Source: Nemertoderma westbladi
Taxonomy: Eukaryota; Animalia; Xenacoelomorpha
Direction: 5' to 3'
Assembly (NCBI GenBank): GCA_032718475.1
Contig: JAUCBJ010005579.1
Coordinates: 1 to 52,272, forward strand
Length of the DNA stretch: 52,272 bases
Shown: piece after piece, positions 5,341 through 40,743 of the stretch
How positions within the stretch are numbered: position 1 is the first letter of the stretch
Layout: each line of letters begins with the position of its first letter
Position numbers and translations under genes: made by a program
The notes under the pieces: model-generated
What the model saw: only the letters and a program-made list of their open reading frames with translations
Told to the model about the DNA's origin: nothing
Database searches by the model: none

Positions 5341-7029
5341 AACTGTACAAATAATGATGGAGGATTCGTGTGTGCTTGCAATTCAGGATATTCTGGAGAT
5401 GGCTTACAATGCTCTGGTAATAATCTAATCTCATAATAATCTAGATCAATTAGTACTAAGCATATAATGTCTTTTATAATTTAGTTTCATGATGGGAAAA
5501 GTTAAGAAATATATTCGCATTTATTATATGCTTTAGATTATAATGAATGCCAGAATGGAAGTCATAATTGCAATAGTAATGCAAATTGCACAAATGTTGA
5601 TGGAGGATTCGAGTGTGCTTGCAATTCAGGATATTCTGGTGATGGCTTACACTGCTCTGGTAATAATCTAATCTCATAATAATCTAGATCAATTAGTACT
5701 AAGCATATAATGTCTTTTATAATTTAGTTTCATGATGGGAAAAGTTAAGAAATATATTCGCATTTATTATATGCTTTAGATTTTAATGAATGCCAGAATG
5801 GAAGTCATAATTGCAATAGTAATGCAAATTGCACAAATGTTGATGGAGGATTCGAGTGTGCTTGCAATTCAGGATATTCTGGGGATGGCTTATCATGCAC
5901 TGGTAAGTTAATCTCATATTAATATCCATCAAATACTAAGCCTGTGCAAATGTTGATGGAGGATTCGAGTGTGCTTGCAATTTAGGATATTCTGGGGATG
6001 GCTTATCGTGCACTGGTAAGTTAATCTCATAATAATATCCATCAAATACTAAGCCTAAAAAGTATTTTTGTAAATTAGTTTTAATATTGAAAAGTTTACT
6101 ATTGAATTTGTATATATTATATGCTTTATAGATGTTGATGAATGTCAAACTGGTTCTCATAATTGTCATAGTAAGGCAAACTGTGCCAATGTTGATGGAG
6201 GATTTGAGTGTGCTTGTAATTCAGGATATTCTGGCAATGGTTTATCATGCACTGGTAAGCTAATCTCATAACCTGAATCAATTACTAAGTCTAGAATGTA
6301 TTTTGCATTTGAGATACAACAATGGAACTGTTAAGAATATAATTGTATTTATTTGCTTTAGATATTGATGAATGTCAGAATGGTACTCATAATTGCCATA
6401 GTAGTGCAAACTGTACAAATGTTGAAGGAGCATTCATGTGTACTTGCAATTCAGGATATTCTGGTGATGGCATCTTTTGCACTGGTAAGCCAATCTCATA
6501 ATAAACCAATTCAAATAGTAAGTATATATTGTTTTTTACAATTAATTGCGTTTCAGCATTGAAATAGTTTGTGGATGGATGTAATTTTGCATTTCTTATA
6601 TACCTTAGATGATAATGAATGCCAAAATGGAACTCACAATTGTCACAATAATGCTAGCTGCGCAAATAATGATGGTGGATTTACATGCACATGCAAACCA
6701 GGTTATTCTGGTAATGGTGTATCATGCACAGGTATGCTAATTCCATAATATTTCAAGTATCAATAATGCGGGATCTAATTAATTTTCCATACATTGTCAT
6801 AGTTGCACACAGTTATCTACCATGTCAAATATCCATTTATCTGATATTATTCAATAATAATACTAATCCTATAATATATATCGAATGCTAATGTAAATAT
6901 ATTTTTGTTGATCTAGATGATGATGAATGTTATAGTGGTATTCATAATTGCCATAAAAATGCCAGTTGTACAAATGTTGCCGGTGGATTCATTTGCGAAT
7001 GTAATTCAGGCTTTTCTGGTGATGGTGTA
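5341..7029 (+). CDS. Calcium-binding EGF exon array, left block (5 complete exons, 1 nearly complete, 2 half exons)
   Basis: AG|D(Y/F/V/I/D)(N/D)EC...NC...A.C.N..GGF.C.C..GYSG.G..C|GT exons start at ~5538, 5780, 6132, 6362, 6609 and 6917. The first (5341) and last exons are cut by insertions; an orphan half exon lies at ~5942-6014. Confidence 0.85.
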
Positions 7030-8271
7030 TGTTAAAACAGGGGCGATCAGGAGCGCGTTATTACTACTGTACTACTGCTAAACACAAAACCGCTACTCAC
7101 CGCTGGATGGCGCTAACCTGCCGTCCGCTAATATATTTTACTAATTTTATACGGCTCCTGCAAATCGCTTGTTCCTTTCTCTACCGATCACTTGATAGAG
7201 AGCTAACTGTTCGAATCTATATGCCACGCGGGAAAAACCAAAACAATAAACCCGAGACGGCTCCCTAGGCTACTTGAAACGAGTGTGGGAGAGGTTTACA
7301 CTCAGAGTGTATTCTTATCGCCTAATCTTACTGTTAAAAACACGCAAATAAACGCGTCCTTTCTAATCGCAAATACTGGGGTTCCTTAACGGAATATATG
7401 AATGTGAGAATGTTTAAAATAACTCAAAGTGTGACAGAATGTCCTACCGGGACTGGTACTACGGGTCTAAACTTGTCTTCGGCTGGCTTTAGGCCAGCAA
7501 CCTACTACTGCGTACTGGATACTGCTATCTAGCTTATTGTCCGCTATTTTCAAATAACCGCCCAGCGTGAATATTTTACAGTACTCCAAATAATTACCTT
7601 AACTACTCTCCGCTATGCTGCGTACAAATTCTTAATTTTACTAATAAATTACAGTCACAAATATGAAACAGCGTACTAATTACTAAGTGTTCCAGAATGC
7701 GCAATTCTAATTTATTACACACCGGGTTACACTAGTAACAGCCTAAATACCGTATTATTTTGGCCTAATCAGTAATTATTTATCGTAAACTAAGAAATAT
7801 AAATCAATCAAGGGAAAAGGGCGCCTATCTAAGCATTCATAATTTAATCAGGCACACTTTAGCAATACACAAATCAGCGTAACAATCAATAGCCAATACT
7901 ATGGTGGACCAGAAGGGCCAATTTGTTTTTTTTTAATTTCATAGAATTAAAAAAAAACGAATAAACGAATTAGCCCTTCAAATTCGTTGTTTCGTTTATT
8001 TATTTTACATTTCCCAGAATAAAAAATCGAATAAACGAATTTGCCGTTCAAATTCGTCTTATCGTTTTTATTTTTGACAATTCCCTGAATAAAAAAAAAC
8101 GAATAAACGAATTGAAAAAAATAAACAAAAAACAAAATGTTTGGTAAAAATTTGTTTAATTAGTTTATTTTTTTCTAACCTGGAAAAAAAATAAACCAAA
8201 AACCAATTCTTAATAGTCGCTATTTTGATTAGACGTGATATTGGCTCTCTCTGTCTGTCCGGTAGTACAGT

Positions 8272-10132
8272 ATGTCTGATCATGATCAATCAGATATTAC
8301 ACTTGATGAACTTATTATTTATTATTTTAATTTGCGGATTTCTGCGAGGGAAACCCAAGTAATATTATCTCGAACGCATAATATTTCGATATCTGAACGA
8401 ACGGTGAAACGATACCGTCAAAAACTACAGTTAAAGTCAAGGAATTTCGAGAAGTGATTGGTGACAGTTTTAGTTGCAATAATAATGGAACTCCAGGGTG
8501 GTGCGATGAATTGCGGCTACCGAACCATGAAACACATATTGTGGTCAAAGTATTCCATTAATACGCCGCAGAACATGGTCCGCCTAATGCTTAATTATTT
8601 AGATCCGGATGGTGTCAATCACAGATTGCGAAAATCGCTGAGACAAAGAGGCCGGTATGGTTCGAATGGTCCGAACGACACGATCCACATTGACGGCTAC
8701 GATAAACTTAAACCTTACGGTTTCCCCATCCACGCAGCAATTGACGGCTTTTCGAGAAAAGTAGTTTGGCTTAGCGTATTGACCAGCAATAACAATCTTA
8801 AAACCGTAACTCAAAATTACTTCGATTTCCTGCAGTTAACTGACAGATTGCCCAGGAAACTGCGTGTTGATGCCGGAACAGAGAATTGTTTAAGAGTTCG
8901 GTTACACCAAGAATTAAGAAAACTTATTGACGGCAGCGAGGAAGCAGCCAAATCTGTTATTATAGGAAGTTCCATTTACAACACACGAATAGAACGATTT
9001 TGGAGAGATTTGCGACGTAAAATGTCTCAATTCTACATAGACTTATTTAATGAACTGATGAATGATGGTCTGTACAATCCCACAGATAATCTACAAGTAC
9101 AGGCTGCTAGGTTTTGCTTTTATCAGTTGATGCAAAGTCAATTAGATGATTGTACCCACTATTGGAATACGCATAGAATGCGGAGAAATAGGAAAATCGG
9201 ATTTGCCGGAGGAATTCCTGACGTGATGTATCTTTCACCACCGTACGGTAAAACGGACCAGTCGTCGCCATTACCACTATCCCGCAACGAACTAGTGTTT
9301 ATGCAGGCCTTTGTTTGATCTCTACATCAATTTATGGTTTGCAAAATTTAGTTAACACCGCTGTTAAATTTGCCAACTGTCATTCAATGCTTTTCAATGT
9401 TAAAAAAACGAAATGTATATATTTTTTGCCGAAATCTCATTCAGGTATTCCGTTATGTAGAATCCGTTTATATGGTGCATATATTCCAATTGTTGATAAT
9501 TTTAACTATTTAGGACATATTCTTCACTCTACTACTGACGATGATTACGACATAACTAAACAAATGCATTGCTTGTATGCCAGAGCAAATGTTTTAGTTA
9601 GGAAGTTCAGTACCGCTCCTTTACCGGTAAAAGTAACTCTTTTTCGGGCATATTGCACCCCTATATATTGTAACAGTCTGTGGAATGCTCATAACTATTC
9701 ACAGATATGTTACAATAAGATTCGGGTGGCTTACAATAATTGTGCACGTTTTTTGTTTAATATTCCGCGGGTTACCGACGGTGAACCTACAAGTATGTCT
9801 CTACAATTCGGAAGGTTAAACCTTCCAATGTTTTGCCATATTCGGTACCGTTCCAAACAAAGTTTATTGCGTAGAATTGTCACAACTTGCAATTCTATTT
9901 TACGTGAGATCTCGCGTACTTGTAGTATTAACTCAATATCACGTATTCTTTCTTAGGTATGATTTCAGTGACCTACTTACTCATACTCTGTGCTTGATTG
10001 GTTGTGTGCTTGTTTTACTCGTTTTTATGGGCTAAGGCCTGGATTAAAGGTAATAATAATAATAATAATAATAATATGCGGCAGGAACTATGTGTCAAAA
10101 CGCCTGTGAATGGTTGTAGTGTTGACTATTGA
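8272..10132 (+). pseudogene. IS3EU DDE transposase (integrase-core fold), premature stop and LINE insertion
   Basis: ORFs 8272-8457 and 8458-9318 are in one frame, split by a TGA. Motifs HIDGYDKLKPYGFPIHAAIDGFSR, LRVDAGTEN, NTRIERFW. The frame resumes after the LINE as MRQELCVKTPVNGCSVDY* (10076-10132). Confidence 0.88.
9305..10075 (+). mobile_element. 5'-truncated non-LTR retrotransposon (CR1/L2-group-like RT C-terminus, 3' UTR, (TAA)n tail)
   Basis: Starts just after the YADD position (LCLISTSIYGLQNL...FNVKKTKC...FNYLGHIL...LYARANVL). Stop at 9956, (TAA)8 tail at 10051-10075, candidate TSD TATGC (9300-9304 / 10075-10079). Confidence 0.88.
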
Positions 10133-10824
10133 AATTCGTTTATTCGATTTTTTATTCTGGGAAATGTAAAATAAATAAACGAAAAAACGAATTTGAAAGG
10201 CCAATTAGATATTCGGTTTTTTTTAATTCTGTGAAATAAAAAAAAAACGAATTGGCCCTTCTGGTCCACCATACAATACTTAACAGTTAGCAGTTCTCAA
10301 TGTACAGTTTGCAGTGTAGAACACGAAGGACTCTCCCAGATACATATAGGCTTCCTAACTAACCCAATTCCTGCCCCCCTAACACTACAAAATAGAGACA
10401 AAATCTGGATCGTCAGCCCCCTAATTACTGTACCGGCGACTAGACTTCCGTCTACACTGCTAGCCTTCCGACCGCAACGGTGACCCCCCGGTGCACCCGC
10501 CGCGCCTACCGGTACCTTAGCCCTCCATTAGAATGAATAGCTACCGTAACGGCGCATGTAATCACAAACAGTCTGACAGTCTAAAGAAAATCCCGTGGGA
10601 TTATCGCCTCTTAAATCACATAGAACCATTAATCAAAAGGGTAGAAATCATAGTTCGGATTGTAATTTGCAGTAACCATCAAGATTGATTAAGAAACACA
10701 GCAAGGAATAAAGCAGAAATTACAAATTTGCGAATTATTGCAAGAAACAAACTGTAGAGCAATTATAGATAAAACTGAGAATCAAAAGACAGAAACTGTG
10801 GATACAGAATGAGAGATTATGCAC

Positions 10825-10910
10825 AGTCTGAGATGAGATGCACATACCGGAAATACAGCCAATTTATATGTGATTCATTGAGGATGATGCAATAATCCTC
10901 TGATTGGTTC
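10825..10910 (-). promoter_or_regulatory. Putative LTR core promoter (CCAAT, TATA, initiator)
   Basis: On the minus strand: CCAATC (~10902-10907), CATATAAA (~10863-10870), and TCATCTCAG ~25-30 nt downstream. Confidence 0.5.
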
Positions 10911-11364
10911 CCCAATCCGCGCTACCATTAGACCAACCTGGAAGCAGCTAGGCCAATAAGGAAGCCGGATTGTGAACCTATTCCCCCTCAGAATCACAAA
11001 TTACCACCATATATGGTAATATTGGCGTTGCTTAATTAGCGGTACTAAAAGCACGGTACATAAGATCTAATTTAGCGCAAATATAATAGAAATTAAAGCA
11101 AATATACAGTTAATCCTATTGATACTAATAACAGCAAGCTTACATCAAGGGTTTTATAGGAAACTTGCTACTGTAGAACTATTTATTTATATTTTATTAC
11201 AAAATTACGTAGGTAGGACTACATACTGTACAAAATGGATAAAATTCACAAATATGGGCATTTTATTTTCCTTATCTAAATATAATTGTGCGTCATTATG
11301 GCTTATCTAAATGATTATACTGTATAACGGCTAATATTGGTACACAGCGCCATATATCGTAACA

Positions 11365-11880: not shown

Positions 11881-14800
11881 TTATCGACTCGCTCCTGGAT
11901 TCTTCGGGCTCACTCCCCTCTTTCGCCCCCGCCCCAGATACACCAATCTTCCTCCTGTGGACTCTGTCGACGGCGTCCGTGAGGCGTCACTTCCCGGAAC
12001 TGGCGATGATGTTCCCTGGGCCCCGACTGACTCTCGGCTGGTACTCCTCCCTCGGCCTCGTCCCATTTGTCGGGTTCCCGTAATCGCCTCCGCCAACTCC
12101 TCCTTCTGCAGTTGCACGCGCGCCTTTTCGGACGCACCCTGTGCATTTCGCTGCAGACGCTGAGCATCGATAATAGAATGATAGTGGTTGTCCTTGACTT
12201 GATGCTTGTCTAGGACCCCTCCTCCTGGTTCTTGCCGCGAGCTATGAGCTCTGGCGGTTGTCGCTGTGGGCGCTGCGGTTCGTTGCTCCTTTATCCGTTC
12301 GGCGGTTAATGGCCCCACCGGTACGTGAGTCAACAGGAACTCGTTGCGGTATTGTATAGCCGCCGGTATTGTACAGTCTCCTCGCACGCGCACCACCTTC
12401 CTAGTCTCCAAAAAGGTCTCCAAAATAGACCTTTGGTTATACGGTCACAAATAGCAACAAAGTTCCAAGTGTATTTATTGTCCATATTCAATTGTCTAAA
12501 GTATTCTCGAACAACAATTACTCCAGTATTCTGCGGAAGATCTTGAGCAGTTAGTATCAGCTCCTGATATTGCGGTAGTGATTGCAAATCCGGCTCATAC
12601 GCGACGTGTGATGGATCTACTGCCCAGAATCCGTATCCTGCCTTGAACGGCAACCAACGCATTTGTGCTTGGATGTGGTAATCAGCCACACCCTCCCACT
12701 TGTCTAACATCTCCCGGAGTAGGTTGGCGCTATGGTTTTGGAAAGAATCATCACACAGTTGACATTTTGCGCTATGATGTCCCTTTACCCCACAATATCC
12801 ACATTGAGAAATGAAGACGGTGCACGTATGGAATGAGTGATCTGTCTTGTTACACCAACAGCAGACCTTATGCGCTGCCTCTACTACCGCGTCGCACGAC
12901 TTTTGACTGTGCCTTATGCTGCTGCACAACTTACATCTACGCGCTTGTGGAAACCAGGCCCTCTCATATATGAGGTCTCCAATCGGCTTCGCACTCCCTT
13001 CCTTCCCAATGTCTAAAATGATGTTGTCCTCTCCGGTCAGAGGTTGTCGATCCGGAACAAAGTAAACATCCTCGCCTTTGTCCTCTATCTCCAATATTTC
13101 CTCCCATATTCGTTTCGGATATGTCTTCTCCACCGGGAGATCCACTCCGAACACCTCTACTAACATCTCCGGCCAACCCTCTCTAACGGGTCTATCCGCC
13201 TCCAAGTGGACGGGAGTACCAAACCCGCGGGTTTGATTCCCGAACCACTTCTCCAAGGCCTCTGGCGTCGGATACTCCATCGACGGTCGGTCTCCCAAAT
13301 CTACGATGTTCTGTCGATATACTCCTTCGAATATCGCTAATCCTCTCCTAACCATCGACGTGTTCTCTAGCGATTGGTTGAAGAACGGGGGTAAGAAACG
13401 CTTCATCACGTCGGATTGGATTCCCCCTTTCGAGCGAACGTATTGATCTCCTCCGTACACCAATGGATGACGCTTCAAAACTCGCGCAATGATATCCGCT
13501 AATAAACAAGTTACCGTGTTCGACTCAAGCACCAAATAATATTGCAGCGATGCACGGGGTGGCGCGCAGATGTTCCAATACACTAATGCTTGCCGTTTGA
13601 AGTGGGATTTGAACTCCGCTCCCGGTGGCGTGTTATATTCACCATACGCCTCCTCGTATTTCTTTTGCGTCTTTAACTTGAAGTCCCAATTATATAACAA
13701 ATGCGCTATAAAGCCCATACCAGTCTTGGCAGAGTTGGGATACTCTCTATAAATTCCAATATCCTGTGCCCATAGCAACAATAGCTTGGTGTCGACAAAC
13801 GGTCTTGGCAATCTGTCCTCCAAATCCGTCATGGCATTGAAGTCGCTCTCCAAATCGCTCTGGACTCCTGATCCCACGTTGACGTAATCCTGGTTGAGAA
13901 TCACCTCTCTAACTTTCTTGGGTAGCATCCTGGCATCGATACGCTCTGCTCCATGCATACCTCCTCGCCTGCATACCTCCAAAATCTGTTCCCTGGGATC
14001 CTTCCCCCGCCGATATTGCGTCGTTATTATGGGCTCCGGTCTCTGTCGGTCCGCCCTCACGCGCATAAATACATGAGTCACACCATCAGCCGCGCGAATT
14101 TGAATGCACTTACTAGTTAGGCACTCTTGATGGGACCCTCCCTCGTTGTCGTAAAACATCAAGCACCAATCCTGTAGGGATTCCTCCGTCTTTCTCCACT
14201 GATGCTGGATCTCGTCGGATGGGGTCCATATGCGCTCTATAGCCTTGTGGTCATCGTATTGGGTGTAGGAACCCTTTCTCCTCAGCTACGCCTGGTCTAC
14301 CTCCTCGTCGCCTGGGAATGTAGCCACCGCGACCCATACCTTTATATACCAAATAACTTGCTCTCCTTCCCCGGAGCTCCAATCTTGTCTTGCGTGTCGT
14401 AATCTGTTATCTGCATCAGGACATCACGCAAGAACTTCACGCATAAAACTTCCCGTAGACAGTCAACGTTCCAATGATCCGATGACATCACCATCGGCAA
14501 GAATCGAATGGCTTCTCGCGACTCCGGGTGATCTACCAATATCGCAGGTTCATTGCCGTCGGAATAATACACTGGTCGGGGTTGAGATACAGCCTGTGGA
14601 ACAAATGCAGTCACTCTCCTAGTCTCCTCCTGATGTCTATCCGCGGTCTTATTATACTCCGCTACCCGCTCTTCAAATAATTGCTTCGATTTCACCGCTC
14701 ACTCCTCCTGCCGCAATGCGTCTATATCGTCCTGATGCTCAGGCGTGAGATTTCTCGCTCGGTGAGGCGAAGTAAACATGGTCCAGAGACTCGAGAGCTC

Positions 14801-15589
14801 CAAACCCGCGGGTTTGGTACCCGAGTCCCGTGCCGCTTCGCACCACGCCTCTAGGTCCTTATAGGCTCGGTATAGCGAAATGGCTGCTGCCATCTCTATC
14901 AAAGCGGGTGTCGAACAGGGTTTAATCTCCATATACGGATCTAAAGTCGTAACGGTCGGCGTAATGGGTCTCGGAGGTCGCTATCCACCGAAGTCGATAC
15001 TGATCATTGGGTTGCTCATCGGGTAACCTCCCTCGTTGTATCTAAGAAACTGGTGAGCTTGACATCGCGTTAATATCGGTTCAGGATGCTGCTCGTTCAG
15101 TCGATCGGGAATCGCTACGTCTTGTTTATTCATGCATTCGCCGCATTTGTATAACAACTTGTATACGCTGAAAACCTTTGGCGTCTCCTGATCCTCGCCT
15201 CGAGTCTTCCGGTAAAGATGCATTCCGTCGAATTGATCCCGGACTGCAGGTAGAGGTTCGTCATAATGTAAATACATGTTCATATGGTACAGACGGGCGA
15301 TTTCCTCGTCTGGGTTTGCGCTAATGTCGCATACATCAAGGGCAAAGTCGTAGGGATAACGAGTGCGATACTCCTTCCGTAAAACCTCCATGGGGTCTCC
15401 CAACGCTTGCATCCGTTTCCTCCTCAACTCCTTCTCATACGTGGGCTTATACTTCCCGTTTAACTCCATCACCGATCTCCCATGGTAGTAAACGTTCGAA
15501 TCTTTACACCCGGGTTGGGCGAACGGTAGTTCCGCCTCCTCTCTGGTGGTAAACCCTCTCCTCGGTTGCGCTCTCATTTCCTTTTCCAT
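11881..15589 (-). pseudogene. BEL accessory ORF (~1,230 codons): unknown N-terminal region, DEDDy 3'-5' exonuclease, 3x CCHC zinc knuckle, RG/basic tail
   Basis: ORFs 15589-14981, 14932-14699 and 14695-14342 share one frame, split by single stops. A frameshift near 14345 and one more stop lead into 14162-12330; a frameshift near 12420 leads into 12423-11881. Exo motifs FYDNE, CIQI, LPKKVREVILNQDYVNVGSGVQSD, FVDT, GMGFIAHLLYNWDFK, W..QYYLVLE. Confidence 0.8.
12762..12935 (-). other. Three CX2CX4HX4C zinc knuckles in the accessory ORF
   Basis: CKLCSSIRHSQKSC, CCWCNKTDHSFHTC, CGYCGVKGHHSAKC. Confidence 0.92.
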
Positions 15590-16345
15590 TATGCTGCGTA
15601 TATATATATATCCAATTGGTCCGTTACGTAACTAATTACACTGTGGGTAAATCAGTTAGATGATGCCGAAGGACAGACTTCCCGAACCTCCCAGCCGCCT
15701 TCCAGCAGTTCAGGTTCGGCTCTCTAGATCCCGTCTCATTCCTAATTACCTTCTAACCTATTCCCATGCATAGCGCAAAAACTTCGGAGATAAACTGGCC
15801 GTGAACAACTCACTTTTTGATGCCCAAACTACTCCCATTACTTGTACTAAACTACAGTAGTTAGAAAGGACAATAGTTTCGGCGCTCGACTATACCAAAC
15901 CCACAGGTTTGATAATCGAACACCTCACTCCACTGCAAACTACTGAGTGGGGGTCTGTGTATGCTTCTGGTGCTACTAACCTTTAGCACCTTGGTTGTTG
16001 TACTGTTGGCACCAATCTGTGGAAGTTACTGAACTCAATTTACACTCCTACATAATATAGCCGTCAGCATGGTTTCTAAATGCTATTTTCCAGGCTTCAC
16101 GACTTTCAAAATACTGTACATCTATAAACGAATTCTAGAATGCGTCTATATGCAGCGTTTGGGATTGTCTTGGGTTCACTTCTAATTTTTAAAATTTGTA
16201 ATTTTCCAAATATTTTTGAAAATAAAATTTTGTTTTTGATACCCACCAGACAAATTCTCAACGCAAATCACCACAAACCCGCTCCTATGCATTTCCTAGT
16301 ATTTGCATACGAGGAATGCATATGAAGTGAATTTGCGTTCCATCA

Positions 16346-18247
16346 CTAATTTTGGTTTGAGGCGGGAGACAAATTATAGTCTCCTGTCTCGATGCGTGTC
16401 TCCTCTAAAAACATGGTATCTTGGACCGGTCTGTCCAAGGTGTGTAAACCATTAGTTTTACACTTCTTTTGGTTCAGACACTTGCACCTTATTTTTACAG
16501 TGATGGTGCGCACTATATTTTCCACGTCCGGGTGTATGTGCAAGATGACTCCGGTCTCCCAATATTTTCTCTTGACAACTGGTTCGGTTATTAATACGTA
16601 GTCTCCTCTTTGGAGGCTCTGAACTGTTTTGTACCACTTAGATCTGGTGGATATTGTGGGAAGATAATATTCCCGCCAATATTCCCAGAATGTGTACGTG
16701 ACGAATTGAGTTATTTTCCAGCTCTTTCGACTATATAGGTCGGCACTAATGGGTTCTGATGCCGGCACAAGAAACGCTGGACTCTGCATTAGCAAATGAT
16801 TCGGCGTTAATGCAACACCGTCCAGCAACATAGCTATCGGCCTCGAGTTCAATGTATGCTCGATTTCGATGAAAGCTGTTACCAGCTCGTCGTCGGTAAG
16901 TTGTTTGTTTACAGGCAATGTTTTAGCAATGGCCTGCTTTATGGAGCGAACCAAACGCTCCCAACTTCCTCCGCTCCAGGGACTTTCTGGAGTGTTAAAT
17001 TTCCACTCCACTCTTTGCGGCAATAGTGCTGCAGAGATTTCTCTATACTGCGCTGCCCTATGAGCCACGTTCAACTCGCTATTCCCCCCGACAAAGTTTG
17101 TACCCTTATCGGAGTAGAACGCCTTTACTAGTCCTCTCCTGGCCATAAATTTCTTTAAGGCCAGGAGCAGAGATTTGGTCGACATGTCTGCCACACGCTC
17201 TATATGTATGGCTCTACTAGCCATGCATATCAGTTGCAGGCCCCATCGTTTGTGGGTCAGCCGTACACTCTTTGCCTCAATCGGACCAAAGCAGTCCACC
17301 CCTGTATTTGTAAAGGGTGGGTCATATGCCTGCACTCTCGCTTCTGGGAGTTCAGCCATCTCCTGTTCCAATACTTTGGCGTTCACCCTCTTGCAAACCA
17401 GACAGGCGTCGTACATAGTACCTACTGCCCTGCTTGGCTGCAATAGAATGAATCGCTGTCTCGCTGCCGACAAACAGTGTAACCTTCCCGCGTGATGCAA
17501 CCTCTTATGTATTTCCCATAGAATCGCTCTTTGCAATTCTATTGGGTGACTAGGGATTATCACTGGGAACCGAAACTGTGAGTTTATGTCGACAGTCTGG
17601 ATTCTCGATCTATGACAAATTAAACCCTTATGGATTAATGGGCTCCATTTTCTAAGGGGTTTATAGAGAACTGGTCGTTGAGCCGATAATAGATAGAATT
17701 CTTTCGGGAAGGCACACATTTGATAATGCTTCAAATGCTTTAATTCTGCTTGATTAATCTTATCCTCTGTCAGAGGATGTTTCAATTTCTGAATTTGCTC
17801 ACTATTAGTGCTCGTTTGTTCTCCTAAATGTTCCGAATGTTTTAAACAAAGGTACGAAACGTATCGGCTTAACCACGCAGTTCTTTCACAAATTGTCAGC
17901 CAAGAGGCAGACGAATTTAGTAATTTGTCATAAATACTACATGGCTCTAATGCCAGCGACGGTTGCCCGCTAGCTAATGGAAGTTTTGAATCCAAACCCG
18001 CAGGTTTGGAAACCAAAGGCTCCATCTTGTCGGTCATTTTCTGTCCGTCACTTACCAATTGTGGCCCTTGTATAGTCTGTAAGGGTGGTTTTATGTCATA
18101 ACTTACCCTTCTGGACCTTGTAGTCACGTAAGTCTCTAGGTCTGACAGGTGTCCAGGCAGCTCCAATGACTCTTCAGGCTGCTCCAATGACTCTTCAGGC
18201 CGCTCCAATGGCTTGAGTTTGGCTTTCGACTTGGAGACTTTCTCCAC
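16346..18247 (-). pseudogene. BEL pol: integrase (HHCC, DDE core, DUF5641-like C-terminus)
   Basis: HKRLHHAG...CLVC; TGVDCFGP; YSDKGTNFVG; PWSGGSWERLVRSIK; LNSRP; LTPNHLL; FWEYWREYYL. Frameshifted relative to RT/RH. Confidence 0.95.
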
Positions 18248-18248
18248 T

Positions 18249-19913
18249 TCACATTGGATTGGTCAAAATCTTCAGTCGCTCTGGCCAATGTTCCTGTGTC
18301 CTCGTTAGAAAATCAGGCCCATGCAACCAAAACTCCTGGGACTCCTCCTGACAGAATTCCGCCGGCATAGCACCTCTCGAAGTTATGTCGGCCGGGTTCA
18401 ACACTCCTGGACAATGTCTCCATTGTTCCTTCGTCGAGAAGTAGACAATCTGAGCGCGTCTGTTGGCCACAAATGTATTTAGTGCAATATTGTCGGCTGC
18501 AATGTACACTAACACTAAGGATGCGTCCGTCCAATAGAATAAGGTCAATGTCGTGTCTAACTCCTCTATTATCTGCTTACTTACCTCAACTGAGACTACT
18601 GCCGCCTGCAACTCTGCACGAGGGACAGTCATGTATTTGACCGGCATTGTCTTTGATCTAGAAGTCACAAAGGCCGTCTCAAACTTGTCCTGACTTACCT
18701 CTCGGTGAAGGTAGGCTACCATGCCAAAGCCGGTGTCACTTGCGTCACTGAATAAGTGCAGTTCTAAATCAGCTGGAAATACCATCTGATTTGGAAAATA
18801 GGAGCGGGGTACATCTATATTTTTCAATAGATGTAACTCGGCTTCCCACTCTCTCCACTGCTTTGCATGTATAGGGGATATTGGCTCATCCCACTCTAGG
18901 TCGGACAACCAAATTTTCCTCATACATACTCGTGCCTGTAATATTACCGGGCTGATAAAGTTTATCGGGTCGAATAGTCTACTCATTGTGGATAAGCAGA
19001 TTCTCTTAGTCAAAACTTGGTCTGGACTACTGGGCTCAAACCTGACTCTCACCTGGAACTTATCTGTGTTCGGATTCCAAGCGAGTCCCAGTACTCGCGC
19101 CATGGGGGTCGGTTCTACACCCAATTCAATGTCTCTGCTTCCGCAATCTTTCACCGGGAACGACTCTAATAGGGCCTCCGGGTTGGTAGTGAACTTGGTC
19201 AGTGGGAAACCTCCTATAGCCAAGCACTCCTGTAGGCCCTGAGCCACTTCTATGGCTTGTTCCGCTGTGTCCTTGGACACCAATCCGTCAACCATATAGA
19301 AGTTTCTCATGATGGACTCAATAACGTCTACTGGGTACTTACCAATCTGGGCTGTCGCCGTTTTCTTTAGAACAAACAGCGTGCCGTTGGGACTATCGCG
19401 GGCACCGATTATCCTGACATACATCTGGTATGTAACCACTGGGCCGGATAGGTCTTCATTCTCATACCAGAGAAATCTGAGACTATCCTGGTCCGCCTTG
19501 CAGGCTCTTACCTGGTGAAACATCGCCTTGATGTCGCAAGTAAACGCGAATCGCCGCTGTCTAAAGCGTAATAGTATCCCTATCAAGTAGTTATTTAAGT
19601 TGGGACCATCCATCAACTCTGAGTTCAGGGACATACCTCTATAGACTGCTGCGCAGTCATTGACTACTCGGACTTTGTCTGGTTTGTCAGGGTGAGTCAC
19701 ATAGTGGTGTGGAAGGTAATAAGTCTGGTCCGTCACTAAGTCCGGGTCCTCTACCTTCCCAGAAAATCCCTTGGCAAAATAGTTGTTTATCTGGGCGCAA
19801 TACTTCTCCCTAACGTCTGGATTCTTTAACAACCGAGCCGTTACTCTGTTCATTCTTTTCAAGGCTAAGTTGTAGTTGTTCTCCAACTTAGGTGGTTGTT
19901 GACGCCACAACAT
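18249..19913 (-). pseudogene. BEL pol: reverse transcriptase and RNase H
   Basis: YYLPHH, KVRVVNDCAA, SLNSELMDGP, DIKAMFHQV, LRFLW; the catalytic motif is decayed to FYMVD. RNase H motifs FSDAS, PRAEL, WTDAS, NPAD. Confidence 0.96.
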
Positions 19914-21452
19914 TCAAACTTCAAAATGTCCTGTCGGTAGCAGATGTATGGTATCTTCCATCATCTCCAGCGACCGTTTCTCATCAGTGGACATGGTTAG
20001 GTCATATCCACCTGGTTCCATTGCGTCCCTATCCAGCCATTCGACGGTTCTATCTCCTGTCTCGAGGTCCTGGCGTATCAATTCCTTCTGCAACTCCTCC
20101 TCACTGTATTGGAAAATGTCAAGGTCTCGATATTTAGCCACCTGACCCTCCACTATGTCGGTATAAGTCAAAACGTTACTCAAATAGGTGGCGTGGGCCG
20201 CTGAACCAGACCCACGGGTCTGATAACAGTAGTCCTCGGGTTCACTATCTGTCCGGTCGTTGTAGAGTGGTTCCGACAATCTAACATTATCGGGAATCAA
20301 CTCCTCGTCCGACTCGCTAACGTCACTACAGTGGTTAATACAGGTTCTCCTAAACTCGTCTATGTCTGGCGATTCTACTAACGGTGGTTGAGTTATAGGC
20401 TGTAATCCGTCGTGTCTATCCTTTGGCTTGTTGCCACCTGTAAATTCATAAGACATAGGTACTCGTGTATACCAACCTAATATAGTCCTATGGGCGTGTG
20501 GTCCATTTACATGCGGCTCAGCTGGTCTCGTTTCCCATATTTGGTGCGCGATCAGCTGTTCTGCACCAATTAACATAGATACATTCCTATAACCTACCTG
20601 GTGTCTCGGTATTCTGAGCTTGTCAAAATACTCCTGTGCTATGGGACTCATCGGTGGCACCTTACCTAACTGCCCGTCGAACCCTTTCATAGCTAGACAC
20701 TTAAATCCGTCTAATGGCAACGCTCTCCGTTCTTGGCGAGTGTGCTGGTCTCTCGGGAGTAGGGAGTCTAGTTCTACCGAAATCTTGTGTCCCTTGAGGT
20801 CCCCTACCCCGTGCATGGACTTTAACACTATTTGGATCTCCTCGGCATCCTGGAAGATGGAAACAGCTCTTGCCACTTCCTCGTCGATATACGATAATGT
20901 GGACGCAGTGTCAAACATCACATATATTCCTTTCAATCCTTTGTCTCCGGTAAGTTTCACCGGAATCACACTGAATATTTCCGACGTGGCCGATGATAAA
21001 TACGTCTGTGCGCTGGTCGATGAACTATCTGCGGTGAAACCTTGGCAGGTCACTTCTCTCGCGCTCGCCTCGCCATCCTCGTCCGACGAACCTGGTTGAT
21101 ACCCATTGTCCTGGATGCCGGTGTACGTATTTCTTCTTATTGTTACGGGATCTCTGCTCCCCTTCCTTTGAGGATTTCTCTGTAGGTAACGGTCCATTGG
21201 GGTATGGAAATCTGCATGTAGCAACTTGTGATGTAGTCTGCCGCATTCCATGCATCCGTCCTTGCTGTTCGGGCACTGGCGCCGTACATGACCTGGCGCA
21301 ACACATGCCCAACAGGTGTCCAACGTCCGCACTTGAACTCTTCTCTGTTCCGAAGTTAATTCTTTGAACCGTCTGCAACTGTCTAACTTATGGTCGTCAG
21401 ATCTTACCTCCTTTAGTAAGCAGAATTGGCAACCTACAAATCCATCCGGCAA
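19914..21452 (-). pseudogene. BEL gag zinc knuckles and aspartic protease
   Basis: CQFC..H..C, CWACVAPGHVRRQC, CMECGRLHHKLLH; protease MFDTASTLSYI; MLIG; TILGW. Same frame as RT, separated by one TGA. Confidence 0.9.
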
Positions 21453-21552
21453 CTCCTGCTGCTTTGCCTTAGGTCTATCTGACCACTCACCTGACCATAC
21501 TCGCGAGTCTGATCTAAAGGCAGGGGTACTCGAATTGTATCTGTCTACTGAG

Positions 21553-22634
21553 TTAAAAGTTATTCCCGTATATAAAAGAGTTAAAAGTATATAAACGGTT
21601 ATTCCCGTAGATGTCGCTAAGTGTCTTCATAGCTAATTCAAATGCTCTTTCATTGCCGACAAAGTTATCAGCAATGGCTCTAGGTTCTCGATGGAGCATC
21701 TGAAGCAGATAGTTGAACTTCTCATTGGGAGTAAAGGTGCTGTTGGTGAGCTGTTCGTCGACATAGGTTTTAAATGTCCTCCAATGCCTATGGTTGCCCA
21801 TAAACTTTTGGGGTTGTTGAGTCGGCAGTCCTTGCCTAGCGGCAAACTTACCTATGTCTCTAAGGGTTGCATCGTTCCGGGTTAACAAATTATTTACAAA
21901 TTTTCTGCAGGGTTATTAAGTCTGGTCCTTTCCCGGGGATTTAAACTTTCCTTTCGGTTTTGTGACTTCTGCCGTCTCATTTCTTCCTCTTCATAACTTG
22001 AGTCTGTGTCAGCCCTCAGTGCTCGTGTTGGTTTACGTGCCGAAGCCCTGACCCAGGCCTCTTGTATAAATCTTTCCGCCGAATTTTCAAAGTTGGGATT
22101 ATGGATCGCAGGGACAGGCGTTCTTACCTGAGGTCTATGTGTTATAGTTGCCTCCGATATGCGTACTCGTTGACTAGGTTGGACTTTATCTAACTTAGGC
22201 CTGCTAGGATTAGAATTACTTCTTACCTGGGCTGCTTCCTTTAACTGTAGGTTGCTAAGCATGTCCGTTATAGGTTGGATGTGCGGCAATATAGCTTGCG
22301 CTAAACTGGCACCTAACTCCTCTCTCGTAATAAATTCCTGGCTAGGGTTTTGCTGTATTGTCGGCTCTATCTGAGTAATCCGCTGTCTCTCATATGATCC
22401 CTCTTCCGGTTTAACCCGGAAGTTCTCTGTCGAACTGGGTCGGTGATCCGTCCGCGTATTCCAAACCCGCGGGTTCGGTTCGCCCAATACTCGGCCTCTC
22501 GGAGTTTCTTCTCTAAACTCCCCATTGTCTCGATAATTGCTGTATTGCAGTGCGCTGTCCTGATGGCGCGGATCCTGTGCGATGGGTGAAGCAATAATCG
22601 CTTTCGTCCTTCTGGGCTCCTCCCCGAGGCGCAC
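21553..22634 (-). pseudogene. BEL gag, DUF1759-like capsid region (internally deleted) with upstream low-complexity region
   Basis: KFMGNHRHWRTFK...EKFNYLLQML...AFELAMKTLSDIYGN; the frame breaks near 21590. Confidence 0.8.
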
Positions 22635-23786
22635 CCATGAGGTGGACGCTGTCTCACCACCCCTGGGGCCAGTCTGACTGATGTTATTAGCAGACCGGGC
22701 CGGAGGGTGGCCCGATGCTTCCCGGGTTCTGTTTTCGGTCCCCCGATTACACCGGCACAGCCCGTCGAACTTGTAGCCAGATGGGCTGCTACTGTCAACT
22801 TACTGTGGCCTGACTGTACATTGAGCCAACTCAGAGAGTCAACCGGCAGGTGGACCAGTCGATAGCAATCGAGCACCAAGGTCGCCCTTGGGCCTAACCG
22901 ACGGTCTTGTCCCAAGCGGGCTTGCGCTACCCAACATGGAATATTGACACGTTTTCACCTGCCTCGCCGGCAGTATTGAGGGGATACCATTCCACAACAA
23001 TACTGACTAGCTGGAAAGCTAGAAACAAGTAACCACTTACCAGTCACTGTACACGTGTACTCAACAGATGTTCACAATATCAAGTACACTACGGTAAACA
23101 CAAAATCGGACACATACCATGCACACACAGAAGACATAATTGGGAAAGACAAAATCGGTGTCAAAATCAGGAGGGACTAGTTATATTGACTATGGACATC
23201 GTGAAAAGATAGTCGAGAGTACTTTATTTTACCGTCTGGGTAAAATAACTTTGTGTGCACAAAGTATGCTGGGGCGCAGTAAAGTATGGTCCTACTAATA
23301 CCAGCGGCGTCTGGACCAACCGGCAAGGTTTCCCACACTCACTCACAGTGGCCATACATACAATCACGTGTACTCACATACCCACAGCAACAGAAAGCTC
23401 ATCTCAGACCTAAACACACTTCAAAGACCAATCAGCTGAACATGGAGACAATAACATATAGTATCAAAAAAACGGAACAGCTGATGGTCAATGGTACACA
23501 TCCAAGCCCCAAAGCTAACTGCCACTGCACGCCCACATACAAATCACAGTTCACACCACATGAACCACAACTCACGCCATGCCACCACCCCTACTGTGTA
23601 CAGGACTGTCAGTACAGCAACAGGCCGACTAGATGGTACCACGGCACCATGTCGATTCATAGTTCGTCAGACACGAGGGCCTTAAGTAACTCCCTTGCAC
23701 TATTGCACACCAATTTTAACGTGCCCCCAGACCCTCACGAGTCCGCCGCCGCCTGCTGTCGGCACCCCTATAGAGACCTCACCTCT

Positions 23787-25496
23787 TTAGGTACCAACCG
23801 GCGTGCGATATGTAGAGAACCGTTTAGCGATCTGTGTATTCGTAATAGCTGGACCGGGTATAGGAATTCTAGTCGTCGTCGACTCGCGTATAGTCGGAGT
23901 CCTCGTCTCCTGTTCGGCCTTCTGCTGTGCGAACAGTTCTCGCAACTCAGTACCTACACTCGCCCCACATTCTTCGATCATTCGCATCCCCTCCTCGGCG
24001 ATTTAATTCGCCTTCCTGGTCCATTCTTCGCTCTCTAGGTTTAGTCTCGCACTTTCCAACTGCGCCAACTTACGTTGTTCTTCTTCCCTCGCTCGTCTCG
24101 CTGCGCTCTCTTCTTCCAATCGCGCCTTCTCTTCGTATAGCGCGCGTCGCTCTTTCTCGATCTCGAGTTCTCGGTCCTTGCGTTCGCGTTCGAGCTGGAG
24201 TTCGCGCTCCTTCGCGTTCGAGTTCCTTCCGTTCACATTCGCACTCGAGTTGGAGTTCCTTCTCTTCGCGCTCAAGTTGAAGTTCCTTTTCTTCGCGTTC
24301 GCGCTCAAGTTGGAATTCACGTTCTTCCTGTTTGCGTTCGGCTTGCTCACGCTTACTTATGTCTTCCAACTCTCGCAGCTTCGCATCTAACTTACGTGTG
24401 CGCTCCCGTTCCCGTTCGGCCTCCTTCCGTGCTTCCGATGCATGCAAAACCTCTGCCTGTTGTTCGTCTAGTCGGCGTCTTCTCTCCTCCGCCGAATTGT
24501 GAGAAACAAGGGATCTAGCGCATATAACCTTCCCTCTTGCGTGACTAACCTAAGAATCGCCGCTGTCTCTAGATGCGTCATCGGGTGGAGTTAACTTCCT
24601 CTGTTGGATGTTCTCCGTCGTCGGTAGCACCTGACCCGGTACCACCACTCCACTCTGCATCAACCAGCTGGTGACTTCCCTCTGATACTTTTGCTCTTCT
24701 TTGTCTTGGGTCTCTTCCCGATCCACAAAGTTCCTCGACTCTGTGTCACTCACCTGAGTCGCTTGCGCTTGTGATGCCCATAGCAACCAGTTCTCCGTCC
24801 AAACTCGTCGGAATCGCTCCGATAACACGCGGTGTTCTAACAAAGCCGCTAAAGCCCTGTCGTAAACCCTCGTCGCTACGTCGCTCGACTGAGACTCCAC
24901 TGCTCTCTTCGCTAGGACTGCAAGCTCCTCCGTCTGCTGGAATAATGCTGAGTTGTATCCCTTTCTAACCTCTACTAACCCTTCCCTTCCGATGTTACCA
25001 GAGTCGGCTAGCATCTTTCTTACCTTATCCGCCGTCCGGGTTATATGCCGGCATGTGCGCGAAGTTTCTTTTTTATCGCGGTGTCCAACTCTCTCTCGCT
25101 TACCTGACTTACACTCGGTGGGCTTGAAGGATTATTACGGGAACTATGGGTACTCCTTACAGCCGCTGGGGCCACGGCACTTACCATACCCACAGGTCTG
25201 GAAACCGGGCTCCGGGGTCTCGCTTTTGCTACACTACCTTCCCTATCACTCACCTGTGGCCGGGCTGCTGTGCAATCCTTCTTTACAGTAGTGGTAGGGG
25301 ATCCTAATACTATTACTTCACCTGGCTCATCCTCACTGGTTACTGTCTCGTCCTCCTGTTCACTTACGTCAGCGTCACTCGCTGCGTCGTCATAGTTGGC
25401 ATTGTCGTCAACAGTTATATTAACGCTATCGTCAGTCGGCGGTCCAGCCGCCGTCTCATAGCTGTCCTCTAGTGCCTCCTTCTCTGAGACACTCAT
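23787..25496 (-). pseudogene. 5'-most ORF of the BEL element: acidic N-terminus and E/R/K-rich coiled coil, frameshifted
   Basis: Consecutive fragments 25496-25041, 25014-24550, 24447-24070/24350-24003 and 23987-23787; ELQLERE repeats. Confidence 0.7.
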
Positions 25497-26490
25497 AGTC
25501 TAAGTAATATTTTGCCTTCCGGCTAAAATCTCGCAAAATTCGATATATATATAATTTAATCGAAAAAACGGTTAAATTAGTAATTAGTAATAATTAGTTG
25601 GTCTCAAAATGTCAAATTAATTCGCAATATAATATTGTGAATTTAATAGGATATAGTTATAGCAAATACCAGTACAATATTTAAACAAAAATATTATTCT
25701 ATAGCTATTATATAGCATTTAAATACCGGTATGACACAAAATAGTTTCTGAATCTAATTCAAAATATTCAAAAAATGAATTAGTCACCCAAATATTTCTA
25801 ATTTTATATATAGCTCTAATTGATATAATTTTAATTTCAAATATTATATGTATTCACTAGCGCGTGGCTACACCTTCGGGTTGCGACACTCTCATCTCTC
25901 TCTCTAACTTGAGCGATTCAAAAAACCATGGCCAGCTAAACCTAACTATCCTAACTAATAAATTGAGTTCAGCTTCGCAGTTAAACAACCGGTAATTTTT
26001 TACTGCTTCCACAAATACAATGGTGCCAACAGAACAACTAACCTTGTTTGCTATGAGATTGCACGTCCGCGTCCAAACTTTCAGGCTCTTCGCTGATTGC
26101 AAACCGAACCCGCAAGCCCACACAAACCCCAAACTCAGAAGCTCCGTCTTGCCATGTATCTCCAGATGGTATAAAACAACTAAGCGGTTATCTAACATAC
26201 TGGTACAAAACCTCTAGATTTTATTATAAAATAACTAATGAACTGCTGTATTTGAGATTAGTAAACGCACTACTGTATATCTCACTGTACGCAGTACAGC
26301 AAGTAAAACAGTACACTAACCTAACAGCCTAAGTGAACACACTGTATGTCTTACTGTACGTAGTACTGCAGAACAAAATATCGTTTTCTACTGTTCGCAG
26401 TACAGCAAGTCAGCCTAATGTACTACTGTATTGCGACTAGTGAATACACTCTTTACTGTTGCAAGCAACAGCAAATATCACGTGTTCTAC

Positions 26491-27742
26491 TGTTAAAACA
26501 GGGGCGATCAGGAGCGCGTTATTACTACTGTACTACTGCTAAACACAAAACCGCTACTCACCGCTGGATGGCGCTAACCTGCCATCCGCTAATATATTTT
26601 ACTAATTTTATACGGCTCCTGCAAATCGCTTGTTCCTTTCTCTACCGATCACTCGATAGAGAGCTAACTGTTCGAATCTATGAGCCACACGGGAATAACC
26701 AAAACAATAAACCCAAGACGGCTCCCTAGGCTACTTAAAACGAGTGTGGGAGAGGTTTACACTCAGAGTGTATTCTTATCGCCTAATCTTACTGTTAAAA
26801 ACACGCAAATAAACGCGTCCTTTCTAATCGCAAATACTGGGGTTCCCTAACGGAATATATGAATGTGAGAATCTTTAAAATAACTCAAAGTGTGACAGAA
26901 TGTCCTACCGGGACTGGTACTACGCATCTAAACTTGTCTTCGGCTGGCTTTAGGCCAGCAACCTACTACTGCGTACTGGATACTGCTATCTAGCTTATTG
27001 TCCGCTATTTTCAAATAACCGCCCAGCGTGAATAGTTTACAGTACTCCAAATAATTACCTTAACTACTCTCCGCTATGCTGCGTACAAATTCTTAATTTT
27101 ACTAATTAATTACATGATTACAATTAACTAATTAATATATGAAACAGCGTACGAATTACTAAGTGTTCCAGAATGCGCAATTCTAATTTATTACGCACGA
27201 GGTTACACTAGTAACAGCCTAAATACCGTATTATTTTGGCCTAATCAGTAATTATTTATCGTAAACTAAGAAATAGAAATCAATCAAGGGAAAAGGGCGC
27301 CTATCTAAGCATTCATAATTTAATCAGGCACACTTTAGCAATACACAAATCAGCGTAACAATCAATAGCCAATACTTAACAGTTAGCAGTTCTCAATGTA
27401 CAGTTTGCAGTGTAGAACACAAAGGCCTCTCCCAGATACATACAGGCTTCCTAACTAACCTAATTCCTGCCCCCCTAACACTACAAAATAGAGACAAAAT
27501 CTGGATTGTCAGCCCCCTAATTACTGTACCGGCGACTAGACTTCCGTCTACACTGCTAGCCTTCCGACCGCAACGGTGATCCCCCGCCAGCGTTGCTCGC
27601 ATTTGAATCCTCTGCACTCCCTTCGTCGCTACCCCTCGGTGCGCCCGCCGCGCCTACCGGTACCTTAGCCCTCCATTAGAATGAATAGCTACCGTAACGG
27701 CGCATGCAATCACAAACAGTCTGACAGTCTAAAGAAAATCCC
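26491..27742 (-). repeat. 5' LTR of the BEL element, missing ~770 bp of its outer (promoter) end
   Basis: Identity to the other LTR stops at AAAGAAAATCCC (27742, equivalent to 10594), then EGF-array intron sequence follows. No terminal CA or TSD. Confidence 0.92.
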
Positions 27743-27861
27743 ATAATAAACTAATCTCATAATAAACTATATCAATTAGTACTAAGCATTTAATGTATTT
27801 TATAATTTAGTTTCATGATGGAAAAGTTAAGAAATATATTCACATTTATTATATGCTTTAG

Positions 27862-38277: not shown

Positions 38278-38794
38278 GTAGTACTCTATTATTTTAGAAT
38301 TTCAGCAATATTTTATATGTTTTAATAATATTATAGATTAAATAAAAATATAAAATAAACAGGACTTTGCATGAACAACTCTATAACAATTGTATCAAAA
38401 GAATTAAATTTATTATCCTTTGAAATACTTTAAAGTTGTTAATATAATATAGTCCAATTTAATTATAAATATATTTCAGTCTTATTTAAATATGTTTAAA
38501 ATATTATACGTTATTAACACACAATAAATTATATATTTAAATTTTTTTAATACATTATCTTTTATTACAAATTTTTTTAATACATTATCGTTTATTAAAA
38601 ATTTTAATATCATTATTTTAATATAACAGTTTGTGTAAAAGTAATATTTCATGTAAATATATTATAAAAACCATGATTATTATAAAATAATTGGTTTAAT
38701 GTAATATTAATTAATTAAAATTTTTTTTGTTAGTGCAGAATTATTTGCCGAGCTATGAGTAACCAAACAAATGGTTTATTGTTTTTTTTTACAG

Positions 38795-39469
38795 AGAAGG
38801 AGGTTGGTGCCTGTACGTGCAACTCACATTGGCCTTTGACTGATGAATTTGGAGGTAAAGATAAACTGGATCACTTGAATGGAGAAATCGGTGGATCCTT
38901 GACGTACCGCAGAGGACCTGGTGGGATTCCAAACCAGTCAGCTGACTTCCACGCCGGATACGTTTATATCCCCCACACCACGGAACTCAATTCGGAAACA
39001 TTCACACTCACAGCATTTGTTAAACTCACAGATGCTGTTATCGGTCCTATATTTGAATATGGCAACACCGCCACGTATGGATCTCATTTTTGGATGTATC
39101 CCGCTTTCTCATCTCTGTATTACAACCCAATGAACGGCCTCTCCCCTACTGAAACACTTTCCAATGCGTGCCCCATTGTAGCGTCATGGTACTTAGTGGC
39201 ACTCGGTGTGAAACAGGATGGTAATCAAGCTTTCATGTACAGTAGACGGCTTGGTAGTAACTCACACGGGTACACGATCGACGAATGGAATCTAGCAAAT
39301 ACGGCGCTTGCTGCAGCAAACTCCAACGATTTACTTATAGGACGACGTCTAGCAGGGGGCAATCTTTTCTACGGGTACATCGCTGACGCCAGATTCTACG
39401 ACTGCTATCTATCAGTGGATGACTTAAATGACCTTTATGATGATTTGCTTGCAGATGAACAAAAACAAT
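38795..39469 (+). CDS. LamG / concanavalin A-like (pentraxin-like) domain exon 1
   Basis: Poly-T ACAG acceptor, GTTAGT donor, phase 1-1. HWPL...GPGG....A.F...Y...FTLTAFVK...GPIFEY...H.W...WYLVA...LLIG...F.GYIA...FY...LS. Confidence 0.85.
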
Positions 39470-39820
39470 GTTAGTATCCAAATGGTTTGTTTACCTTCAT
39501 TACAGATAGCAAAAGTATACAATACAGTCAAATGTACTTTAATTTAAAATTTATGATCTTAACGATTATTTAAACCAAGACGGAATCTCACATTTTATTA
39601 TTATTTGTAATTTACAATAAATTTAATATGATCAAAGTCTTTCTTAAGTAGTATTAGCATTCTAAAATTTCCTAAGACAACAGTGTCGACAGATGTTTGC
39701 ACTGATATGGTAATCCCTCAAATTCTTATTTGTGATTGGCCTCCTATTTATAGAAATCTTATTATTAGAGTCTAAAATTAATTCTTACAACAATTATACT
39801 GTTATTGTTTTTTTTTTTAG

Positions 39821-40480: not shown

Positions 40481-40743
40481 GTAAGTTCAGCTTGTGTTTA
40501 TAATTTCATTATAAGTTTAAAGTTTTTATGGCTCACTACAATTTATTTATTTGATGTATAGAGCGGTTGTTTTGGGTGGTGATCACGATTATAGAACTCT
40601 AATATAACATTCGAAACAATTTTCGATATTTTTGAGTGTGTCCCTTGGGGAACGGAAAAAACAAGTACAGTAGTGCAAATATGATAATGTAAAATCACCA
40701 CAAAATCAAACTGATTTTATGACTATATGGGTTTTTGGGATGC

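Follow-up and report, generated by a model that had tools for sequence, protein, structure and literature searches.

Open reading frames (ORFs) for DEDDy 3′-5′ exonucleases are known as ORF3s in the bdelloid rotifer long terminal repeat (LTR) retrotransposons Juno and Vesta and in Athena/Terminon elements (PMC5408684; Terminons, PMC6431247). Here, we describe a gene with a predicted exonuclease domain of this class, followed by three zinc knuckles, in a BEL/Pao LTR retrotransposon of Nemertoderma westbladi that lies on contig JAUCBJ010005579.1, positions 1 to 52,272 (the whole of these 52,272 nucleotides is called the window below). As published, the rotifer ORF3s resemble the window gene in being sense-strand DEDDy ORFs in the env position that have no transmembrane (TM) segment, keep their acidic residues with a D/E swap, and have an inferred function. 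They differ in belonging to Gypsy-type or Penelope-like elements, and by the published description, their motif reads DEED, against D-E-D-E in the window. The available text of PMC5408684 does not mention for the rotifer ORF3s a triple CCHC array such as the window gene has, and unlike the ORF3s described there, the window gene includes a long N-terminal part as well as a new tail. The original prediction for this locus, made from the letters of the window alone, had pointed to these rotifer ORFs, and the published account bears it out.

Trypanosoma brucei RNase D (TbRND; PDB 7c42) is reported to have a similar layout, with CCHC knuckles behind a DEDDy exonuclease (PMC7797062). It is a cellular enzyme with four zinc fingers, whereas the window gene has three knuckles past a linker of ~175 amino acids (aa) and an extra tail, and the shared layout is probably convergent. 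TbRND was matched in the sequence search by way of its knuckles (E 2.4e-7) and in the fold comparison as well (Z 3.3). The best sequence and fold matches are host proteins of the PF01612 class (EXD2, Nibbler [mut-7], WRN-exo, EXD1, and Egalitarian), at ~20% identity or below and differing from the window domain in its ExoIII E. To our knowledge, these host proteins do not carry the knuckle-tail module. Acquired DnaQ-fold nucleases are also described in the mobile elements Dada (DEDDy; PMC3706591) and KolobokD (DEDDh; PMC9587614); these are DNA transposons, their nuclease is proposed to act on DNA ends, and a knuckle array is not mentioned in the text available. Env-carrying BEL/Pao elements (roo and the mosquito gB-like elements; PMC13524379 and PMC3118150) likewise hold an additional gene that sits between the integrase part and the 3′ LTR, but as described, it encodes a membrane fusogen, whereas the window gene has no hydrophobic segment.

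A BEL/Pao element with an exonuclease gene was not found in the literature searched, although Repbase reports, subscription journals, and supplements may hold one, and the word "exonuclease" does not occur in the accessible text of PMC3118150, PMC6238403, and PMC13524379. DEDDy ORF3s in LTR retrotransposons, DEDD nucleases in other transposons, and the layout of an exonuclease with CCHC knuckles are already known, and it is the BEL/Pao host that is apparently new. The capture of exonucleases is hereby extended from the rotifer Gypsy-type and Penelope-like elements to BEL/Pao, and since separate element groups have apparently captured different exonuclease types, repeated selection for exonuclease function is suggested.

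The predicted exonuclease gene

The extra gene occupies 15589-11881 of the minus strand, which is the sense strand of the element, and stands in the env position. It is made up of five ORF pieces of 93 to 651 codons, is intronless, and has no LTRs, terminal inverted repeats (TIRs), or poly(A) of its own. The following parts are distinguished.

15641..15659, minus strand: candidate splice acceptor (branch-point-like CTAAC, pyrimidine run, CAG), read from the sequence
14345..15589, minus strand: N-terminal ~415 codons of the extra gene, with two in-frame stops
13476..14240, minus strand: predicted DEDDy 3′-5′ exonuclease domain of the EXD2/Nibbler/WRN class (ExoI D-x-E, ExoII D, ExoIII Y-x3-E), with an insertion of ~30 aa past strand 3
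12762..12935, minus strand: three CCHC zinc knuckles
12560..12761, minus strand: conserved post-knuckle tail (C..FE..A..G..T..R...GF...Y in the homologs; no Pfam family)
11881..12444, minus strand: low-complexity basic RG-rich C-terminal piece

All exonuclease motifs named by the original prediction were recovered where it had placed them, in one unbroken frame of 651 codons (14285-12333) that is the longest of the gene: FYDNE at 14156-14142, then the CIQI strand, LP..V.EVI.NQ.YV.VGSGVQSD at 13877-13848, FVD at 13799, GMG at 13727, W at 13580, and QYYLVLE at 13544-13521. The choice of FYDNE as ExoI also stood, since the other register, offered by MAFFT, was rejected on its joint block score (-9.6 versus +10.0 for FYDNE, a value reached by 1 of 300 shuffles).

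An exhaustive search of 1.84 billion proteins with the 651-aa piece, at a homolog cutoff of an E of ≤0.001, returned seven proteins (P0001 to P0007) of 514 to 727 aa with E values of 2e-7 to 2e-4. All seven come from unannotated metagenomic sources, in clusters of one or two members, and share one layout, in which an exonuclease-like region is joined through a variable linker to three CCHC knuckles and the knuckles are followed by a conserved tail. A profile built from six of them, with the window left out, matches the exonuclease part of the window at an E of 1.5e-17 and its knuckle part at 2.8e-16 (Z = 1e6). The solved structure that the family profile matches best is EXD2 (E 1.8e-7, or 6.8e-7 when the window sequence is left out), with ExoI and ExoII aligned. 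A search of the ESM Atlas led to a PF01612 cluster at 0.90, while the window piece by itself has no PF01612 match in Pfam. A word-index homolog search with the 651-aa piece gave no match, and neither did one with the alignment of the family (A1), which is uninformative since it missed its own members too. A hit to rotavirus VP4 in a single-protein PDB search (E 0.007 over 62 aa) is ascribed to chance, as neither the profile search nor the fold search backs it.

The fold prediction from a single sequence was useless (predicted local distance difference test [pLDDT] value of 33), and a model was therefore taken from the alignment of all eight sequences. Structural alignment of this model ranked Nibbler first (Z 5.9 and 5.1), followed by WRN (5.0), EXD1 (4.7), and RNase D (4.5), the matches covering residues 35 to 276 and the top Nibbler match 151 aligned positions with a root mean square deviation of 4.2. 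Judged by their titles, all but one of the best 41 structural matches are either nucleases of the DnaQ fold or polymerases that contain such a domain. Three results speak against the assignment: the model is poor (mean pLDDT 41.6), all Z values are below 8, and Foldseek with the model found no match at an E of ≤0.001. Low Z values alone prove little, and the fold call rests on the agreement of the structural ranking with the profile and the Atlas PF01612 cluster. On this agreement, the original assignment to a DnaQ/RNase H-like fold and to the DEDDy exonucleases of the EXD2/Nibbler/WRN/RNase D class holds as a prediction, with a low-confidence model behind it.

The catalytic acids are kept among homologs that share only 18 to 25% identity. 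Where the sequences hold the region, ExoI D is found in 7/7 and ExoI E in 6/7; ExoII D is present in seven of the eight, and ExoIII is acidic in seven of the eight (D in four and E in three). The conservation seen is thus one across distant homologs, and none of the three findings named beforehand as fatal to the original prediction was made. The unusual E in QYYLVLE had been noticed before and recurs, with Y-x3-E in the window, P0003, and P0007 and Y-x3-D in P0001, P0004, and P0006; the E-type sequences group in the tree with a weak support of 56. Since ExoIII has E for D in these three sequences, P0005 lacks the ExoIII Y, and the exonuclease of P0002 is degenerate, some members of the family may be inactive, which counts against an enzymatic role.

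The three knuckles (12935-12894, 12863-12822, and 12803-12762) lie in the same 651-codon frame, and each fits C-x2-C-x4-H-x4-C exactly, as had been predicted. The knuckle part of the profile finds its matches in Lin28 and in the knuckles of trypanosome RNase D and nucleocapsid proteins. In P0002, the knuckles and the tail have been duplicated together, so that the module is present twice. Knuckles plus tail form a conserved module that has no Pfam entry.

The original prediction joined the five pieces into one frame of ~1,230 codons. That all pieces make up one 1,230-aa protein, with the breaks as later damage, is likely but unproven; we infer a single ORF that requires five breaks and not four, namely, three stop codons in frame (14983, 14701, and 14288) and two shifts of frame (near 14345 and at 12440-12330). 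The reading as two genes, with a separate start directly past the stop at 14344, is less favored because three diverged contigs align without gaps from ~14345 to 14023 or further and a loose contig end lies at 14349. The N-terminal ~415 codons gave no family or homolog match in Pfam, NCBIfam, and protein searches, and Pfam and NCBIfam gave no relevant family for any piece of the gene. This part has 2 internal stops in the gene frame versus ~20 in each other frame, and it is therefore read as decayed coding sequence. An RG-rich tail does follow the knuckles, as had been noted, although it is in a different frame (12444-11881); basic C-terminal tails are also present in P0003, P0006, and P0007. 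No TM helix was found in any of the five pieces, where the highest 19-residue hydropathy is 1.35, and this lack of a hydrophobic segment agrees with the earlier view that the gene is not env. The CTAAC/pyrimidine/CAG motif lies 52 nt upstream of the first ATG, and it could possibly serve as the acceptor for an env-style subgenomic mRNA.

Copies of the gene

The region was found in three sequencing runs (X1 to X3) from two studies of the same species. A fourth run (X5), which was not picked by the extra gene, covers it as well, making it 4/4 runs. No RNA sample was among those listed as containing the region. Among the 32 contig pieces listed, from which our counts are taken while >44,000 further pieces exist, 13 fall on the extra gene with a divergence of 11 to 18%, and 8 of these 13 are gap free. 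The gene is thus no one-off passenger, and the diverged copies support its belonging to a multicopy BEL/Pao element; the proposal that it would be found beyond this copy has been borne out. The summed depth over the gene is 0.30 to 0.73 of that over pol in X1 to X3, a ratio that is not a copy number, and among the contig pieces listed, no single contig spans pol to the exonuclease.

The exonuclease-knuckle module is absent from the 120/120 nearest BEL polyproteins among the matches listed, a comparison of polyproteins that does not cover separate ORFs in those elements. This absence fits an accessory role. For P0006, no matching contig was found among viral or metagenome contigs. The context of P0002 is a single 3.7-kb contig (L001) with an intronless gene at 124-2025, followed by 1.36 kb of noncoding DNA, after which an acidic ORF begins (3390-3685). 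It has no recognizable pol or other retroelement gene and no match to BEL proteins. The noncoding part holds a TGG-starting stretch that resembles a primer-binding site (2960-2970). From its sequence, the contig is compatible with an LTR element and could be a collapsed LTR-element junction.

The host element

The host is an LTR retrotransposon on the minus strand at 27743-7030, which measures 18.3 kb once a nested insertion is subtracted, compared with the 4.2 to 10 kb given for BEL/Pao elements in the accessible text of PMC3118150. Its parts are as follows.

26491..27743, minus strand: 5′ LTR by LTR comparison, its first ~380 bp probably missing
16346..25496, minus strand: broken BEL/Pao gag-pol (DUF1759, gag knuckles, protease, reverse transcriptase [RT], RNase H [PF05380], integrase [H2C2, rve, DUF5641])
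10981..10989, minus strand: candidate polypurine tract
7030..10978, minus strand: 3′ LTR, ~1.57 kb if its start follows the polypurine tract candidate, split by a nested DNA transposon (7900-10273)

The assignment to BEL/Pao in the original prediction is upheld by the domain order (gag, protease, RT, and RNase H, followed by integrase) and by the BEL-type Pfam set (DUF1759, PF05380, and DUF5641). All 120 of 120 relatives among the RT/RNase H matches listed are BEL-type polyproteins with PF05380 (best E 7e-126; up to 41% identity), and those with names are mostly from marine invertebrates. By these sequence features the host is a BEL/Pao LTR retrotransposon, and the RT/RNase H comparison places it in BEL/Pao as a whole and not in any particular clade. 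The copy in the window is dead, with a degenerate RT catalytic motif and a gag-pol reading that is broken at several points.

Of the 871 sites that could be aligned between the two LTRs, 21 differ (2.4%), and both LTRs have the same CA end. A target-site duplication was looked for at both ends of the element without success, and the phases of the host repeat disagree between the two ends; from this, the start of the 5′ LTR looks to have been lost through a later deletion. The gag region (21900-25496) is very long, with ~1,200 codons ahead of DUF1759, and contains a charged coiled-coil-like repeat; ~1.2 kb of it (22593-23792) is skipped in some copies of the element.

The priming of reverse transcription may be unusual. 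No TGG occurs within 190 nt of the 5′ LTR, and the missing tRNA-type primer site could reflect either decay or self-priming. At the corresponding position, we note the following feature.

26481..26490, minus strand: primer-binding-site position, with 9 to 10 nt complementary to the LTR site 27412-27420 / 10316-10325

As described for Tf1/Tj1 (PMC4600332), self-priming uses bases after the 5′ LTR that are complementary to the 5′ end of the transcript. Here, the complementary LTR site lies ~24 nt behind a TATA-like motif, and the two stretches pair in the minimum-energy and centroid folds of a transcript whose start was chosen by us. Complementarity at offset 0 past the 5′ LTR arose in ~1.6% of 3,000 shuffles, a post hoc comparison. 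On this sequence pattern, Tf1-like self-priming by the element is possible, at clearly less than an even chance. In one diverged subfamily, the sequence found after the 5′ LTR is different.

Possible function and alternatives

We tentatively propose that the product is a knuckle-assisted RNA 3′-5′ exonuclease directed at the small-RNA defense of the host, a reading that we lean toward without calling it probable. The first half of it draws on the same layout in trypanosome RNase D and on Nibbler, which is described as trimming the 3′ ends of microRNAs and Piwi-interacting RNAs (piRNAs). The accounts of the trypanosome enzyme state that its knuckles are required for RNA binding and efficient cleavage and that its overexpression depletes guide RNAs (PMC7797062). 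The closest solved relatives (EXD2 by profile and Nibbler and others by fold) act on small or structured RNA ends, which we count in favor. Counter-defense was chosen as the second half because ordinary BEL elements do not need such an enzyme. The exonuclease would be expressed from a spliced subgenomic mRNA, as for env; the knuckles and the basic tail would hold single-stranded RNA and pass its 3′ end on to a two-metal active site, the part that the knuckle domain plays in the trypanosome enzyme. The targets, the weakest step, might be precursors of piRNAs or small interfering RNAs (siRNAs), antisense transcripts, or decay-marking 3′ tails on the RNA of the element, and the silencing of the element would be weakened.

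Several further points pull the other way. EXD2 and WRN act on DNA too, and mature piRNAs are 2′-O-methylated and resist trimming. The lack of the module in the nearest BEL polyproteins is also compatible with its being a separate ORF in those elements. For the rotifer extra ORFs, the published account describes neither a clear relation to copy number nor a significant deviation from neutral evolution (PMC5408684).

It is also conceivable, if doubtful, that the nuclease works within the particle and brings the RNA or the primer of the element itself to its mature form, for instance, by shortening the 3′ end of the genome or a self-primer made from the 5′ end of the transcript. Nucleocapsid-like knuckles would bind element RNA, the pairing behind the TATA-like motif stands in for the missing tRNA-type site, and 3′-end processing is among the proposals made for the rotifer ORFs (PMC5408684). 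Self-priming is, however, a single short match (P ~0.016, post hoc) that needs a loop of ~930 nt, while L001 carries a TGG-starting site instead; BEL elements of the ordinary type need no such gene to replicate, and no protease link to gag-pol puts the protein into the particle. The loss of residues in parts of the family (ExoIII E in 3/8, the missing Y of P0005, and the degenerate P0002 with its doubled knuckle module) would suit a weak or dead nuclease that serves as an RNA-binding adaptor and moves or shields element RNA, comparable to EXD1 (Z 4.7) and Egalitarian (Z 4.4; profile E 6e-4), both of which are among the matches. We consider this rather unlikely, as ExoI and ExoII acids are kept at ~20% identity and ExoIII is still acidic, which is rarely so in dead domains, and rotifer ORFs with the D/E swap (DEED) are still called intact in the published text (PMC5408684).

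The size of the element (~18.3 kb, against the published 4.2 to 10 kb) and a fold that is the same as in polymerase editing domains invite a comparison with coronavirus ExoN, which proofreads for its polymerase. Proofreading of reverse transcription over such a long genome is nevertheless improbable, given that the exonuclease is not fused to the RT, that the best matches are in the RNase D/Nibbler/EXD branch, that the knuckles suggest single-stranded RNA, and that the divergence within the family is mostly transitions, as usual. A poor chance is likewise given to the gene being captured cargo that does nothing for the element, whether taken from the host or as part of another transposon. No homolog was seen inside a BEL/Pao element, the only context obtained (L001) has no recognizable pol, and the depth over the gene is below that over pol, but the gene is intronless and in the sense orientation and has neither LTRs nor TIRs nor poly(A) of its own, and its diverged and mostly gap-free copies extend to the run that was not picked by this gene.

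If the product does act on host small RNAs, the element would counter piRNA or siRNA silencing by means of an enzyme. In animals, few transposons are known to encode a suppressor of small-RNA silencing. The gene offers a candidate nuclease whose catalytic residues are conserved, which brings its own RNA-binding module and which has natural homologs, and the question thereby becomes testable in vitro. The broader idea, of a widespread unnamed family of transposon-borne anti-silencing exoribonucleases (an EXD2-like domain, three knuckles, and a new tail) used by a giant BEL/Pao lineage together with tRNA-free self-priming, seems unlikely to us; if true, this would be the first self-priming BEL/Pao element as far as the literature searched reaches.

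Flanking sequence

The DNA transposon nested in the 3′ LTR (7900-10273; 2.37 kb), which we take to be IS3EU-like, is bounded by TIRs of ~150 bp, with a target duplication of 6 bp, and encodes an rva_4 integrase core (E 5.5e-32). Two ORFs at 6-2503 gave no convincing Pfam match, and inverted repeats at 6-75 and 2434-2503 suggest that this stretch is a further DNA transposon. Each flanking repeat of ~230 bp (5300-7029 and 27744-52272) corresponds to an exon plus intron of a host gene in which at least 59 exons for calcium-binding EGF domains were counted. The units have been amplified as higher-order repeats, and a reading of them as satellite DNA was rejected in favor of this tandem EGF-exon gene. 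The host gene also has two LamG3 exons at 38734-40503, and the insertion point of the retrotransposon is the end of an EGF exon.

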